15,422 bases of DNA from NCBI GenBank assembly GCA_041498975.1, contig JBGQJI010000053.1, positions 1 through 15,422 of the forward strand, in the 5' to 3' direction. Shown here piece after piece: positions 9,001 to 15,000 of the stretch. Position numbers: made by a program. How positions within the stretch are numbered: position 1 is the first letter of the stretch; every line of letters starts with the position of its first letter. This DNA comes from Candidatus Methylomirabilis sp. Lineage in GTDB: Bacteria; Methylomirabilota; Methylomirabilia; Methylomirabilales; Methylomirabilaceae.

Positions 9001-12000
9001 CCCGATATGGGTCTTGATGAACGTGACGATGCGCGTCTCGTCGAACTCGTCAAATTTGTCGATCCTGCCCCATGCCGTCAGCGCGATTTTCCGATCCAGC
9101 CCAGGGTATGGCGCAAGAACGACCCGATCGTATCGCCCGGCGACCGCCTTCAAGCGCTCGACAAGCTCCGGGCAGTCCCGACAGGAATAGTTGATGACAA
9201 CCCCGCCGTCTTCGAGATTGTGAAGCTGCATCTCCTTGGGGATCGGATCACTGTGAACACCCCATACGGCCAGTTCATCTGTGTGGGGCCCCGAGGTGGG
9301 TGGATCGGTGTTATACGGTGGATGAGCGGTGCCGAGAGGGATATGCGGACTTTGAAGGATCGGGGCACCGGTCCAGGCAACCTTCTCGGTGATCTTCCCA
9401 TACGCCCAGTAGGCAGAGACCAGCAGCGCTGCTGATAGGGTTGCGTAAAGGCCGATCTTCAAGGCCACGTTCCGCTGTTGCGCCCGCCTCTTCTCGAACG
9501 CTCGCTGTTCTTTCACCTCCTGCTTGCGCTGTTTCCTCACCTCGTGTTTGGTGGTCTGCCTGTTCGCCATCGTCTCCCTCTGAAGCGATTCGCCTCGCGA
9601 GTCCTCCCAGCCGTTAGAGCAAGAAGATACCCTGTTTCTCAGGTGATTTCAACGGTGAATTGGGCTGCAGGAAGGGCCTCACCTTCGAACGCAACCATTC
9701 GAGACGACCACTGCAACGAAACTCCAACCAAGGGCTTCGCAACAAGAATGGCGAGCCTCATCACCTGTATTCCAGAAACCGTGAATGAGGAAACTGCGGC
9801 TGGCGATGGAAACGCCTATCGAGGAGACTCAGGGAGGTTGCTGGCGCAGAACACAGGGGAGAGTGCAACCCTTCTCGGGTTGAGACGTCACCTGACAATG
9901 GAGAACGCGTTCACACCCGCTACGCGGTTCTTCGAACCGGCCGCGAGCCGCGCGCTTTGGCTGCCTTTCTTTGACGCCTGCGTGGCTCCTTCTCCGCAGC
10001 CGGCGCCGATGCTCCGCGGGCTGGTATCAGGCCAAGGACCTCGCTCGCTGCCTCCTCGATCGATTTGCTGGTCATGTCGATGACGGGCCAGCCCGCCCTG
10101 CGGAAGAGGGACCGGCTGTAGCGGAGCTCGGAGCGCACCTCTTCCAGATCCGCATAGGCGTGACTGGAGGGGGCGCCCTGGTGCTCGAGCCTGGCGCGGC
10201 GCAGCTCCACTAACCGTTCCGCGTCCTGGATGAGCCCGACGATCCGACTTTGATCGATCTTCATCAATTGGCCAGGGAGAGGGAGATTCAGGATGACCGG
10301 CACATTCGCCACCCGCCACCCTTTCCCCGCAAGATAGATGCTGAGCGGCGTCTTTGAGGTCCGCGAAACCCCCGCCAGGACGATGTCCGCCAGGTCCAGG
10401 CCGAAGGGGTCCTGGCCGTCATCGTGTTTGACGCTGTATTCGATCACTTCGATCCGATGCAGGTACTCGGCGCTCAGTTGCCGGAACAGGCCTGGCTGGA
10501 CGAGCGGCGGAATGCGAAGCAGGTCGGTGAGGCGTAGCAGGAGCGGACCGAGCAGGTCGATGGTTGCCACGTCCATCCTCCTCCCCTCGTGCAATGCCGC
10601 CTGGCGGAGTTCCTCGGAGACCAGGGTATGGACGACGATCCCTCCGCTCGCCTTCGCCGTCTCGATCGCACGTCGAACCTCATCGACCGTCCGGACATTG
10701 GGGAGGCGTCGGATCTCGACCTCGACTGTCTGAAACTGGGCCAGCGCCGCTCGCACAACCAGTTCCGCAGTGGCGCCGGTGGCGTCAGAAACTGCGAGGA
10801 TCTGATGACGAGTGGCCTCGGACGGCGGGTTCATGGCGCCTGTCCTCTTTTCACTGCGATGGCCTCCACCCGGCCCCCCTGGCCAGCAAGAGGATCTTCG
10901 CCGACGCCTCAAGGGTCGTGGTGAACTTCAGAGCCTCCTCGAGGCTTCCACCGGCCGCGAAACTCCCATGCCCTTTGACGAGGACAGCGCGGTGTGCTTG
11001 GAGGAGCGACGAGGCCCGGTCGGCGACTTCGGCGGAGGCCACGACGTTCTTCGCGGCAATCACCGGAACCCTCCCAAGGATGTAGCCTCCCTCGGAATCG
11101 GCCGGGACGATCGCCTCGTCGAGCAGCGACAGCGCGACCGCCGACGGCGGGTGAGCATGGAGGATCGCTTGCGCGGAGGTCGCACGGTAGATCGCCAGGT
11201 GAACCGGCAGCTCCATCGACGCTTTCGCGTGCGGGGGTTCACGTCGCGAGAGCGAGGTTTCAACAACGTCCTCTGCTTCGAGATGGCCCAGCATCGAGCC
11301 GGTCCTGGTGATCCAGACCCGCTCGCCCGTCCGGAGGCTGATGTTGCCGGCGTGCGACGTGATCAGGCCCAGATGATACAAATCCCGCCCCACCCACTGA
11401 AACGCCTCGAAGATCCTCGATCGCTCCATCAGGTCATCTCGCCGCATCGGCAAGGCGCGCGATAATCGGGGGTATCAGCGACGAGGCCAGGTCTGCTCTC
11501 GAGCCGCCTCCAAGGACGACCAGGAGGCGACCGCCGCAGACCTGACCCGACAGTGCAAGAGTCAGGCCGACGAGCCCGTTGTAGCACGCGGCGGTGAGGC
11601 CGAGGTCGCCGTAGTCGCCCCGATGTCCGTCGAATCCAAAATACCAGACGAGCAGGTCCGGGCAGAAGGTCCCGGCCCGTGCGGCGAGCGCCGCCTCCGC
11701 AGCCTCAAGGTACACCTCGTCACTTCTGGCCCCGGCTTCCAAGCAGCGGCGATAGACCGCCACGTCCACTTTTGTCCCATCGGCAGACGCATAATCGCTC
11801 CCGCACAGACAGACGTGTAAGACCGCCGGGTCGTCGCGGTAAATGTCCCGGGTTCCGTCGCCATGGTGCGCGTCGGTGTCCAATATGGCCACCCGCCGCA
11901 CCCCGTGCATTTCCCTGAGTCGCTCTATGGCGATCGCGACGTCGTTGAAGCAGCAGTAGCCGCCAAAAAAATCCCGCCCGGCATGGTGTCCCCCGGCGCC

Positions 12001-15000
12001 GATGAAAGCAAAGGCGTTGATCAGTTCCCCGAGCCAGATTCGCTCGGCCGCCGCAACCACCCCTCCGACCGAGTGGCGCGCGGTCGATCAGAGGGGGTCC
12101 TTTGCGACCTCGCGGATCAGGTCGGCGGTGTGAACCTTCAGGAGAAGCTCATCGGAAACCGGCTGGGCCTCGAACAGGACAACCTGGGGGAGAGCGAGGA
12201 GGTCTCCCAGGGCGTCGGGAAATGCGGCCAGGCGCCTTCCCACCGTCAGGTAGCTCCGCCGGGAGAAGCTCGGGTGATAGAAGATCCCGGTCCGCGGCAT
12301 CAGGTTGGGTCGCTCAGAGCTCAAGGAGCACCGCCACCTCGTCGCAATGGTAAAACTTGCTGCACTTCAGACAATCTTTCCAGATCTTTTCCGGCAGCTC
12401 GATCTTGTTGACGACCCGGAAGCCCAGACGTTCGAAAAACGCCGTCTTGTACGTCAACGCGAAGACCCGCTTGATCAGGAGGTTCTTCGCCTCCGCGACA
12501 CAGGCCTCGGTCACCGCCCAGCCGATGCCTCTTCCCTCGAACTCCGCCTCGACGGCAAGGGATCGGATCTCCGCCAGGTCCGCCCCGTAGATGAAGAGTG
12601 AACAGGCCCCGGCGACCTGTCCTTCATGCTCAAAGATGTAAAAATCCCTGACCCGCTCGTATAACTCCTGGAGCGTCCGCGGCAAAAGGTCGCCCTTCTG
12701 CGCGTAGAAATTCACCAGCCGCTGAATGGCCGGGACATCGATCGTCCTCGCCTTCCTGACCACGCTCCGCCTCAGGCACAGGCCGCCGCCGTTCCCGCCT
12801 TCGACGACGCGGCGAACCCGGCGCCATCGATGGTGACCCGGCCGGGCTGGCCCATCCCACCTTCAAGCGATATCGACAAAGGAAGGAATTGCTGAATCGT
12901 CCAGAGGTTCGTAAGAAGATGCTGGCTCACCCGGGCTGTGGTCAGGACCGAGCGGCCCGGTGCCAACGCCATGAGGATCGCCAGTTGATCGGCCAAGTGG
13001 GAGTCGGTGGCAGCGTCGCCGGCGAGGAACTGAAGCAGCGCGTCCGTCGCCTCATCGGCGACACGTTCGGCGGGCTTGCCACGCTCCCCAAGTGCGCCGA
13101 AGCCTGCGCGGGACCGCTCGAACTCCGCCCACAGGAACAGGGCATCCCCCGGGCAGGCCGCATCGAGCTCCTGGATCTCGATCTCGACCGCCGGGTACCC
13201 GGCCTCTGCAAGACGGCGTCGAACGTGGGCTGCCTGCCGCTCGGCAATCCGTCTCGGCAATCTGGCGATCGCCGAAAGGCCGCGGATGGCCAGCATCTTG
13301 CCGCGATCCGACAGATCGAGCGCCGCGAGCCGCATGGATGGCTGAACAGCGGCTCGGACCTCGCCACCCCCCCTTGGATAGAAACCGGCCCGCTGCACCT
13401 GCCAGGAGGCGAGGACTCCCATTCTGGCAGTGATGGGGAGGAAGACCTCAGACACATAGGGGGCCGACGGACTCCATCGGACGTGGGTCCCGCCCGTCAT
13501 CGTAAGAGAGGACGGCGTTGTCGCGCATGCAAGCGGAGCAAGGATGGTCTGGAAGACCAGGGACAGGGCCCCGGCCGTCCCGACGTCAAATCGACGCGAT
13601 CCTCCAGTGATCGGTCCAGGGCGGAAACGCAGGTGCGGGGAGCCTCGCTCCGCCCCTTGCACCTCCGCGCCGGCGATCTCGGCCAGTGCCCGGACGCAGG
13701 CCAAGTGTTGCGGCTGAAGCCCCGGGTTCTTCCGGCCGCCTCGGATCTTGACGAGCTCGACCGGCCTCCCAAGGATCGCCGAGAATGCGAGGGCTGTCCT
13801 GAGGATCTGCCCGCCGCCCTCCCCATATGAGCCATCGATCGTCAGCACCTCGCCCCTCATGCTTCGCACCCCGCACTTCGCACCTGGTCCCTACGACTTC
13901 TGCTTCCGCGCGACCCGCTCCGAAAACTTTCCCAGATTGACCACATACCGCTCGTTCTGTCCCTCGGCGATCTTCTCTTTCTCATCGTGGGCCTCGAGGT
14001 CGAACAGCAGGCGTCGCCCGTCCACCTCCCTCAGCGTCGCCTTGACCCTCACCGTCATCCCGACCGGGGTGGCGGCAAGATGCTTCAGTGTGACCATGCT
14101 CCCGACGGTGCCCTGCCCCGTCTCCAGGTTCGCGGCCGCCATCATCCGGGCGGCTTCCTCGAACCAGGCGAAGATAATCGGCGTGGCCAGCACGTGGAAC
14201 CCTTCGTTTCCCATCCGATGCGCGGTCACCTCGTCACTTACCAGATGTTCGAGTTCGAAGGTCATCCCGGCCTGCAGGCCCACCCTCTGTCTCCCCTCAC
14301 AGGAACGCAAGTTGATAAGAAGACCGGCGTGCACTGTGGTCCCTTGCTTCGAAGCGTATTATTTGCCCCCTGGCAAAGGCTGTCAAGCGAACTCTTCGGC
14401 GGGAACAGCAAGAAGGAGGGTTAGCGAGAGGCCGTGCCTCCGCGCTTCTTTCCAACCTTTTCGTGAAAGCGCGCCAGGTCAACGATGAATCGCTCGTGAT
14501 GGCACTCCCCGATCTTCTCCACTTCATCGAACGCTTCGATCCAGAAGACCAGGCGTCGCCCGTCAATCTGTTTCAGATGGGCTACCACCCGTACTGTGAG
14601 CCCGATGGGGGTGGCTGCCAGGTGCTTCATGTTCACGACACTACCGACCGTTCCCTGCCCTTCGGGCAGGTATTGCTGCGCACCCGCCGTCGCCACCTCC
14701 TCCATCCACTCGACCACGATCGGGGTGGTGAGAACATGGACGATCGGATTACCATGCCGGTCGGATGACTCGGCCTCGGTCACCCGCCGTTCCATCTCAA
14801 ACGTCAGTCCCTCCCGAAGGCTCATCTGCTCCTCCCATCTCATGCGTCTCGCTCGTTGCAGCTTCCGGAACGCGATCTCCGCGCCTTGTACCATCCCGGT
14901 TCCAAGGTGTCAAGGAAAAGGTCAGAAACGGATGCGGTGGACCGAGCCCTGCAGGAGGCCGGAATAATACTTGACAGCCTCCGGTGGGAGCAGCTAGATT

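Follow-up and report, generated by a model that had tools for sequence, protein, structure and literature searches.

The window analysed here, the whole 15,422-nt stretch of contig JBGQJI010000053.1 from a Candidatus Methylomirabilis sp., most probably carries on its minus strand a single gene for a selenocysteine (Sec)-containing enzyme of the histone-deacetylase (HDAC)/arginase fold, with Sec insertion at an in-frame UGA inferred from the gene, its orthologs and the genome. What appear as two open reading frames, 12088..12324 (78 aa, TTG) and 11434..12060 (208 aa, GTG), lie in the same frame with the TGA at 12088-12090 as their sole separator and with both sides conserved, in keeping with the preliminary description, which had joined them as one gene read through the UGA. 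Translated from 12324 with TGA as U, the product has 296 residues, with U79, followed by a terminal TGA. That description had placed the start at this TTG; the ATG at 12300 is likelier, to judge from the sequences, because it lies 13 nt past the stop codon (12314-12316) of the GNAT gene upstream and because the orthologs begin at the same point with M-x-R-[TV]-G. The protein would then have 288 residues with Sec at position 71, the numbering used below. The likely ATG of the downstream aldolase gene (11427-11429) lies 4 nt past the selenoprotein stop. Conservation of the neighbouring genes was not found outside Methylomirabilales, and they therefore give no clue to function.

Table. Features of the selenoprotein gene and its surroundings in the window
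Feature	Position	Strand	Remarks
GNAT N-acetyltransferase, upstream	12314..12763	-	NF005840, 195 bits; context only
Possible 8-codon extension to TTG (U79 numbering)	12301..12324	-	Overlaps end of upstream GNAT gene; ATG 12300 preferred
Predicted selenoprotein CDS, HDAC/arginase fold	11437..12300	-	288 codons from ATG 12300; stop TGA 11434-11436
In-frame UGA, probably read as Sec	12088..12090	-	Residue 71 from ATG, 79 from TTG
SECIS-like hairpin within CDS	12055..12085	-	Columns 6-36 counted from U of UGA; RNAalifold consensus
His105-His106, tandem His of GGHHA	11983..11988	-	Invariant columns
Cys116-Cys117	11950..11955	-	C116, HDAC-conserved Cys (HDAC8 C153 by register); C117 specific to the Sec/Cys71 clade
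Asp143-Ala144-His145 of DTDAHHGDGT	11866..11874	-	Metal ligands by homology; D141, D143, H145 invariant
Asp224 of FGFDGH	11629..11631	-	Third metal ligand by homology; invariant
Tyr230 of GDYGD	11611..11613	-	Found in at least 90% of 36 aligned subfamily sequences
Ser267 at canonical catalytic Tyr position	11500..11502	-	LGGGSR aligned to HDAC6 LEGGYN
Class II aldolase, downstream	10851..11453	-	NF006413, 206.8 bits; context only

The TGA is kept at one column across families of the order. When all 30 full-length matches with loci were checked, 29 carried it in D[PL][LF]-*-STA (27 of 28 without L040 of G032 and L044 of G042, which come from unpublished genomes), and the remaining one, from genome G046 of family f7, had TGC, so that the earlier claim of a conserved TGA with a Cys ortholog in f7 holds. 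The motif DPL-U-STA itself, previously called invariant, is conserved across orthologs as near-invariant only, since DLL, DPF and DAL variants occur. TGA-bearing genes were found in families f1-f5 and in 2 of 159 genomes of f9, and none of the 29 Sec-clade orthologs examined in the order has lost the codon, even at ~60% identity. An in-frame stop is the usual mark of a broken gene, but a pseudogene or an assembly error has a negligible probability here and is contradicted by two observations: the codon recurs at one alignment position in 29 order genomes and, in a species-genome scan, in 22 of the top 80 loci (two sets that may overlap in genomes), and contigs from four other metagenome runs span 12088-12090 without a differing letter. 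Apart from the single TGA, no stop or frameshift interrupts any TGA ortholog, in the order or among the species-genome loci, and both halves are conserved.

Beyond the order, the best 80 loci of that scan divide into 58 with Cys at the column, from Desulfobacterota, Acidobacteriota, Myxococcota and others, and 22 with TGA, which are titled Methylomirabilota, NC10 or Rokubacteria or bear no taxon. Cys also occupies column 71 in 101 of 105 full-length database relatives, the remaining four being unmatched by the search pattern. The Cys orthologs are single open reading frames, and in every one of them the N-terminal 70 codons are fused in frame. In the tree, all 31 Sec rows group in a single clade (SH-aLRT 99) that sits among the Cys rows and implies one change, and the phylogeny thus indicates a single origin of the Sec forms. 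What had been put forward as a new selenoprotein family of Methylomirabilales therefore stands as a selenoprotein without a listed match, but it is the Sec branch of a widespread Cys family rather than a family of its own; that the family reaches beyond the order, with numerous homologs that have Cys, is new here.

The genome is equipped for Sec insertion: it encodes a tRNA-Sec with anticodon TCA (UCA; 71.4 bits) as well as SelA, SelB and SelD, the last itself with one TGA, and 58 of the order's 66 genomes have SelA, as do all 25 of high quality. The hairpin behind the UGA, also noted previously, has the loop NGUNG at columns 21-25 in 27 of 27 distinct TGA sequences, which puts the G-U ~21-23 nt from the UGA; in the window the apical loop is GGUCG (12066-12070), with G at 12069 and U at 12068. 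The SECIS of E. coli fdhF has G23/U24, at the usual distance from UGA to loop, and the SelD UGA of the same genome is followed by a hairpin with G-U at +21/+22, the same spacing. Of the 27 distinct TGA sequences, 25 form at least 9 of the 10 hairpin pairs, as against 2 of the 49 Cys sequences, a comparison that favours the TGA forms because the consensus structure was derived from them; on these counts the predicted hairpin is specific to the TGA forms. Folding was stronger than in synonymous-codon shuffles (mean z -1.32 vs -0.40), with p-values overstated by the relatedness of the compared sequences, while the single-sequence fold of the UGA region was no better than shuffles (z -0.53). Covariation is thin, with double-sided changes in 2 of 10 pairs, from few lineages, and no Rfam family matches.

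Could the UGA be left undecoded as Sec, through termination that yields a 70-residue peptide and maybe a separate 208-residue protein, or through read-through by a near-cognate tRNA? Gene callers do yield such pieces, 207-208-residue fragments making up 15 of the best 120 database proteins, and yet we consider this very improbable: the 208-residue piece would lack strands 1-2 and the helices of the fold, the first 70 codons show conservation at the protein level and are joined in frame to the rest in every Cys ortholog, and the genome combines a UGA-specific hairpin with complete Sec machinery. TGA is, moreover, a normal stop in neighbouring genes.

The product is a complete member of the superfamily, as had been described. 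Pfam Hist_deacetyl (PF00850) matches it with 148.6 bits against a cut-off of 27.9, over residues 72-269 on profile positions 79-284 of 298; the motifs GGHHAG, DTDAHHGDGT, FGFDGH and LGGGSR are all in the product, and a paralog on contig C23 aligns across the junction. The AlphaFold model (pLDDT 95.9, pTM 0.94) has the arginase/deacetylase alpha-beta fold. Among the curated NCBIfam models none matched at E<=0.001, AcuC and named deacetylases included, which agrees with the preliminary description. The 'AcuC-like' names found in databases are automatic. D143, H145, D224, H105 and H106 do not vary among the 36 aligned sequences and line up with the HDAC6 motifs, the first three being the metal ligands by homology. 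The catalytic Tyr of the glycine-rich loop (GGGxY) is absent and Ser stands there in 104 of 105 full-length database relatives, so that the protein is a superfamily member by fold and not a canonical active deacetylase; from its conservation, Tyr230 is a candidate substitute for the missing Tyr.

Residue 71 is placed in a short turn that closes a shortened L2 loop, right before helix 74-89, and Cys117 adjoins the conserved Cys116 on loop L3. The Cys116-Cys117 pair is present in 105 of 105 full-length database relatives, while column 117 has Tyr or another residue outside the Sec/Cys71 clade; at columns 71 and 117 together, members of the close clade have (C/U, C) and more remote members of the subfamily (Y/W/F, Y). 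The protein contains neither a UxxC nor a CxxU motif.

SelB with Sec-tRNA would probably bind the hairpin on the translating mRNA and insert Sec at UGA71 to give the 288-residue protein, in which the likeliest role of Sec71 is that of a redox-active residue beside the metal site. There it may bond reversibly to Cys117 or Cys116 as a selenenylsulfide, which would gate zinc-dependent hydrolysis of an amide or ester on the model of the L2-L3 disulfide switch in HDAC8. We put this redox role forward tentatively, by analogy: U71 and C116/C117 exist and co-occur, and register puts residue 71 near HDAC8 106-108. According to the available part of PMC6174833, the redox switch of human HDAC8 is a disulfide between Cys102 on loop L2 and Cys153 on loop L3, and a chalcogen pair by the zinc site could likewise inactivate the present enzyme reversibly. 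When residues are counted back from the tandem His, C116 matches C153 in register, and the segment equivalent to L2 has residue 71 at its end. The differences from HDAC8 are that residue 71 comes ~4-6 positions after C102 in register, that its likely partner is C117, the clade-specific neighbour of C116, that Sec takes the place of Cys, and that Ser267 stands where HDAC8 has its catalytic Tyr.

It is possible but rather unlikely that Sec, once inserted, instead binds the catalytic metal directly (as a selenolate 'switch' or in an altered metal centre) or serves as the catalytic nucleophile in place of Tyr, and is not half of a selenenylsulfide. Such roles fit a subfamily in which the canonical Tyr is Ser throughout and the metal ligands and His pair are invariant, and both have precedents in PMC13188914: Sec ligates metals in formate dehydrogenase and [NiFeSe] hydrogenase, and a nucleophilic Cys is replaced by Sec in several non-redox folds, for example those of the glutamine amidotransferase-like family and methylated-DNA-protein-cysteine methyltransferase (its Table 1). 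However, column 71 is occupied by Tyr, Trp or Phe in more distant members that also lack the canonical Tyr, so that residue 71 is not a catalytic residue shared by the whole subfamily, and the co-occurrence of C117 suits a pair better than a lone ligand. Quite improbable, in our estimate, is a Sec without any special role, a near-neutral swap of a structural Cys in a lineage rich in Sec use. The Sec machinery is almost universal in the order, a Methylomirabilota MAG has been predicted to have 63 selenoprotein genes (PMC13188914), and the Sec form arose once; but Cys holds the column in all 58 Cys loci and nearly all database relatives, the TGA has been kept despite the cost of a SECIS in the coding region, and Sec generally derives from redox-active Cys, according to the available part of PMC1794560.

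Compared with the bacterial HDAC-like amidohydrolases (HDAH of Bordetella/Alcaligenes and Pseudomonas aeruginosa, PrpH/DmhA, and 5ji5 of Burkholderia phymatum), the protein has loops ~50 residues shorter (model 1-286 vs chain 2-332), Ser for the catalytic Tyr, Sec/Cys71 together with Cys117, and no NCBIfam match. Class IIa HDACs (HDAC4, 5, 7, 9) also lack the catalytic Tyr, but have His there instead of Ser; in the available part of a bacterial survey (PMC11532494), His in place of this Tyr is identified in no bacterial enzyme and the Ser form is not described. Table 1 of PMC13188914, a 2026 review, comprises 119 families and subfamilies of predicted bacterial selenoproteins, with which the present gene shares a conserved in-frame UGA, Cys homologs at the column, a hairpin just downstream and Sec machinery; unlike most of them, which have thioredoxin-like folds or UxxC/CxxU motifs, it combines a zinc-hydrolase fold with the lack of such a motif. 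In agreement with what had been reported, none of its entries mentions PF00850, deacetylase, histone, acetoin or amidohydrolase, a comparison that covers this table and not a 2026 groundwater-genome paper predicting many Methylomirabilota selenoproteins. The combination of Sec with a deacetylase-fold enzyme is thus absent from the current selenoprotein catalogues compared, i.e. this table and NCBIfam.

For the public databases, in which Sec forms are stored as 'AcuC-like' fragments, this reading corrects the annotation, and the natural Sec and Cys orthologs (60-68% identity) make a ready pair for enzymology. Few sequence-only signs mark a functionally critical residue, usually redox-active or nucleophilic, as strongly as a Sec/Cys pair, which here singles out residue 71 of a widespread, uncharacterised, Tyr-less HDAC-like subfamily, which gives a concrete and testable idea of function. 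A further reading, unlikely as we see it, is that Sec/Cys71 and Cys117 form a new catalytic centre of the arginase/deacetylase fold, in which a thiol or selenol would work with the metal throughout this subfamily in Desulfobacterota, Acidobacteriota, Methylomirabilota and others, either through a covalent acyl-seleno/thio-enzyme intermediate or through hydrolysis coupled to redox state, chemistry that to our knowledge has not been described for HDAC-like enzymes. Were this so, the arginase/deacetylase fold would have its first selenoenzyme in the Methylomirabilales version. The Sec form would also bring a zinc-hydrolase fold into a selenoproteome dominated by thioredoxin-like folds.

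The ORFs of 78 and 208 residues lie in the same frame, and their sole separator is the TGA at 12088-12090, which agrees with the claim of the preliminary description that they form a single gene read through an in-frame TGA. Translation with TGA as selenocysteine (Sec, U) yields a protein of 296 residues (U79) from the TTG, or of 288 residues (U71) from the ATG at 12300. On sequence grounds we prefer ATG 12300 as the start, because it lies 13 nt past the stop of the upstream gene and because the orthologs start there with M-x-R-[TV]-G-I-F-Y-H; residues are numbered accordingly. 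TGA is also a normal terminator here, ending both this gene and the one upstream. The same letters stand at 12088-12090 in contigs from four other sediment metagenome runs, and within the gene these contigs differ at 12103 alone, where one run has T>C, synonymous by our reading.

Positions of the genes and motifs discussed; contig (C) or locus (L) is named for features outside the window
Feature	Position	Strand	Basis
ORF of 78 aa, TTG start	12088..12324	-	ORF list
ORF of 208 aa, GTG start	11434..12060	-	ORF list
Predicted selenoprotein gene from ATG 12300	11437..12300	-	
Motif Cys164-Leu165-Cys166 (VLHVCLCG)	11803-11811	-	
GNAT acetyltransferase, adjoining	stop 12314-12316	-	NF005840, 195 bits
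Class II aldolase, adjoining			NF006413, 206.8 bits
RNA 3'-phosphate cyclase RtcA, small GNAT and two tandem FlK-type thioesterase paralogs, upstream	12314-13869 and 13891-14894	-	
SelD (L011)	C199:1054-1980	-	
PF00850 paralog (L127)	C23:8583-9458		canonical PF00850, 279 bits
Formate dehydrogenase alpha, FdhA (L130)	C89:4955-8041		TIGR01553, 1209.7 bits
Ortholog with two TGA codons (genome G021)	C51:4860-5678		57% identity
ORF of ~258 residues past the Cys-form gene, L053, L057, L061 and L085 (Desulfobacterota)	about 3860-5115		weak match, C-terminal half of Tpt1/KptA

The joined product is a complete histone deacetylase (HDAC)-fold protein, as had been claimed. Pfam Hist_deacetyl matches it with 148.6 bits (residues 72-269, profile 79-284 of 298), an AlphaFold2 model built from a 36-sequence alignment has a mean pLDDT of 95.9 and a pTM of 0.94, and Foldseek with this model retrieves HDAC-like structures at E about 1e-20, with 5ji5 at the top (TMq 0.84). 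From the profile match of the joined product, the model and the Foldseek matches together it follows that the 70 residues before the UGA are integral to the fold. Compared with HDAH, the protein is about 50 residues shorter, mainly in loops. The genome carrying the window, G000, has two more PF00850 genes, on C23 and C72; the former aligns with the joined protein through the junction (residues 33-266, E 2e-17), in line with the earlier report of such a paralog, and the alignment of the latter is limited to residues 100-163. On its contig, the C23 paralog is some 3 kb away from selA. A protein atlas queried with a natural Cys relative (P0002) returned 'putative histone deacetylase' clusters only.

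Across the order Methylomirabilales (66 genomes), we translated every full-length match that had a locus, 30 in all. In 29 the single stop is a TGA within D[PL][LF]-*-STA and in the remaining one, G046 of family f7, the column holds TGC, so that a TGA kept at the same column, with Cys in another family, is borne out. Two of the 29 TGA forms come from unpublished genomes (L040 of G032 and L044 of G042); no claim depends on them alone, and the count without them is 27 of 28. Two more full-length matches, which came without loci, have one TGA (G008) and two (G021); for the double TGA of the latter, a second Sec, a frameshift and a broken copy are all conceivable. Among the 251 genomes scanned across the phylum, the only matches beyond the order are in 2 of 159 genomes of f9, a family of another order of the same class, both with TGA (L045 of G197 and L046 of G169). 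The gene is patchy within the genus of the window, g1, since it is present in only 6 of 19 other genomes and a search with the protein did not find it in nine genomes of 99-100% completeness, including a closed one.

The machinery for decoding UGA is present in G000, an assembly that is 84.9% complete: tRNA-Sec (Rfam, 71.4 bits; ARAGORN tRNA-SeC, anticodon TCA), SelA (505 bits), SelB, recognized by its wing domain and on the same contig as tRNA-Sec, and SelD, with one in-frame TGA within its own gene. SelD is thereby a selenoprotein itself, with the motif HGAG-U-ACK. Within the order, SelA turned up in 58 of 66 genomes, with all 25 high-quality ones (G046 included) among these, and it accompanies the full-length TGA form in 25 of 29 genomes; the four TGA-form genomes without a SelA match (G004, G010, G023 and G042) are 68-87% complete. 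A search of FdhA of G000 for an in-frame stop found none, so it could not be used as a second internal control for the SECIS, and SelD served. In this genome, then, the commonest bacterial selenoprotein lacks an in-frame UGA and the deacetylase-fold protein has one.

The hairpin that had been claimed behind the UGA emerges as a consensus. RNAalifold was given 25 distinct TGA sequences, those of the two unpublished genomes being excluded; counting columns from the U of the UGA, the lower stem is formed by 6-8 and 10-11 on one side and 31-32 and 34-36 on the other, the upper one by 16-20 and 26-30, and the loop occupies 21-25. Of the 10 pairs, 2 show double-sided changes. A minimum of 9 pairs is found in 25 of 27 distinct TGA sequences versus 2 of 49 distinct Cys sequences, and the 45 nt past the codon, compared with synonymous-codon shuffles, fold more strongly in TGA forms (mean z -1.32, n=27) than in Cys forms (mean z -0.40, n=53; Mann-Whitney p 1.8e-5), counts and a p value that overstate independence, because the TGA sequences themselves supplied the structure and all the sequences share ancestry. 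We compared TGA with Cys forms because folding of a single sequence is indecisive in such GC-rich DNA; for the 66 nt of the window that surround the UGA, z against shuffles is -0.53. The loop is CGUGG, GGUCG or CGUCG in 27 of 27 TGA forms, and mostly GGCGG in Cys forms. Just past the codon Sec forms read STAR-x-SVGG and most Cys forms STAWHSAGG, and it is these amino-acid differences that create the stem and the G-U of the loop, as would be expected if a SECIS constrained the coding sequence. The UGA of SelD in G000 is likewise followed by a hairpin, of 7 bp and with the loop CCCGU; its G-U falls at +21/+22, compared with +22/+23 in the deacetylase-fold gene. E. coli fdhF requires G23/U24 at a comparable position. 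A search of 11900-12200 against Rfam at E<=10 gave four chance-level matches only, none of them to a SECIS family.

The Sec form proves to be one branch of a larger family. A scan of one genome per species gave 314 relatives, and among the best 80 loci the codon is TGA in 22, TGC in 53 and TGT in 4; L064 reads HPLCTTAW at this column, and 58 loci have Cys in all. The TGA loci are titled Methylomirabilis, Methylomirabilota, Methylomirabilales or NC10 (16), Rokuibacteriota (1) and 'uncultured bacterium' (5). Titles of the 58 Cys loci include Deltaproteobacteria, Syntrophobacteraceae, Desulfobacterales, Deferrimicrobiaceae, Anaeromyxobacteraceae, Acidobacteriota/Thermoanaerobaculia, Actinomycetota, Margulisiibacteriota and Acidithiobacillales, and one (L071) is titled Methylomirabilota. 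The Sec form, put forward by the preliminary description as a new selenoprotein family, is thus a branch of a Cys family that extends beyond Methylomirabilales. The nearest Cys forms are 67-68% identical (sequence DPLCATARHSVGG). Among the best 120 matches in the protein collection, 15 are fragments of 207-208 residues starting just past the UGA, and these are Sec forms as rendered by gene callers. The other 105 are full length; Cys stands at the column in 101 (4 fall outside the search pattern), Cys-Cys at 116-117 in all 105, and Ser follows GGG in 104.

In a maximum-likelihood tree of 95 distinct proteins (31 Sec, 60 Cys and 4 Tyr-type outgroup rows; Sec/Cys column masked, duplicates and rows under 250 residues excluded, quick search without bootstraps), the Sec forms make one clade (SH-aLRT 99) nested in the Cys forms, and therefore one state change is enough. 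The Cys form of G046 branches outside this clade. Both f9 sequences fall within the f3 branch, which suggests horizontal transfer or mis-binned contigs.

The 36-sequence alignment shows no variation at H105, H106, D141, D143, H145 and D224, which align with the tandem His and metal-binding motifs of HDAC6; the equivalent residues of the family bind the metal. Ser267 is aligned to the catalytic Tyr (LGGGSR versus LEGGYN of HDAC6), which is missing throughout the subfamily in that alignment, and at least 90% of the sequences retain Tyr230 of GDYGD. The model places residue 71 in a helical turn of three residues (69-71) between helices 59-67 and 74-89. By register, C116, counted back from the tandem His, corresponds to HDAC8 C153, and residue 71 to about HDAC8 106-108, at the end of loop L2 and 4-6 residues beyond C102; these HDAC8 numbers are supported by the titles of HDAH mutant entries and by passages of PMC6174833. 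Those passages describe human HDAC8 as inactivated by a C102 (L2)-C153 (L3) disulfide, with C-alpha atoms 6.7 A apart. Columns 71 and 117 hold Cys/Sec and Cys in the close clade, and Tyr/Trp/Phe/His and Tyr in distant members of the subfamily; Cys-Cys occurs in 10 of the 89 representatives covering both columns, every one a close relative. From the metal-motif alignment, the loss of Tyr, the register of residue 71, the co-occurrence at 71/117 and the HDAC8 switch, we infer by analogy that Sec71 might pair with C117 or C116 as a reversible selenenylsulfide beside the metal site. Sec71 as a metal ligand, or with a nucleophilic role, is a live alternative. Separately, the C-x-C motif at 164-166, in strand 160-166, replaces what is mostly Ser-x-His in other HDAC-family matches; the close clade has it without exception, and some distant subfamily members share it.

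The neighbourhood was considered as a functional clue and rejected, since the neighbours in the window, among them RtcA, the two thioesterases and PpsR, recur only within Methylomirabilales and those of Cys forms are varied. The RtcA/GNAT/aldolase order is found in that order alone, none of seven neighbour proteins matched at the loci with a Cys codon, and the GNAT is missing at two same-genus loci (L020 and L021). A single stop-to-stop frame holds both the RtcA and the GNAT match in family f2, possibly a fusion. ORFs upstream of Cys forms include Redoxin (5 of 55) and SAM methyltransferase (6 of 55), and those downstream Tpt1/KptA-like proteins (4 of 53), too weak a basis for a function. The Redoxin/AhpC-TSA peroxiredoxins lie directly upstream on the same strand (L095, L099, L107, L118 and L124), and these closely related loci may be one lineage. 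The Tpt1/KptA-like ORFs (RNA 2'-phosphotransferase), together with RtcA beside Sec forms, are a faint hint of an RNA-repair context; ORFs of the same size at that place in L059, L063, L068 and L072 had no Pfam match at E<=1e-5.

That the protein has no entry among known selenoproteins, as claimed, holds for Table 1 of the 2026 review (PMC13188914; 119 prokaryotic families and subfamilies) and for NCBIfam, where no model matched the joined product at E<=0.001. The terms deacetylase, histone, acetoin and amidohydrolase do not occur in the text of that review, nor in the deep-Sep paper and 4 supplements, the 2022 review, or the BSepDB paper and 1 supplement. A full-text literature search that left Deng et al. 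2026 (Cell Rep, doi 10.1016/j.celrep.2025.116760) outside found no paper on an HDAC-fold selenoprotein; passages of PMC13188914 cite that study for novel candidates and for 63 selenoprotein genes predicted in one Methylomirabilota MAG, and the present family may be among those given there or in the supplements. Passages of a bacterial deacylase survey (PMC11532494) do not mention cysteine and describe no Ser form. Considering our findings here, Sec decoding at UGA71 is strongly supported by computation, and the protein is a genuine, so far uncatalogued, predicted selenoprotein that represents the Sec branch of an HDAC-fold subfamily which is widespread, contains Cys and lacks the catalytic Tyr.
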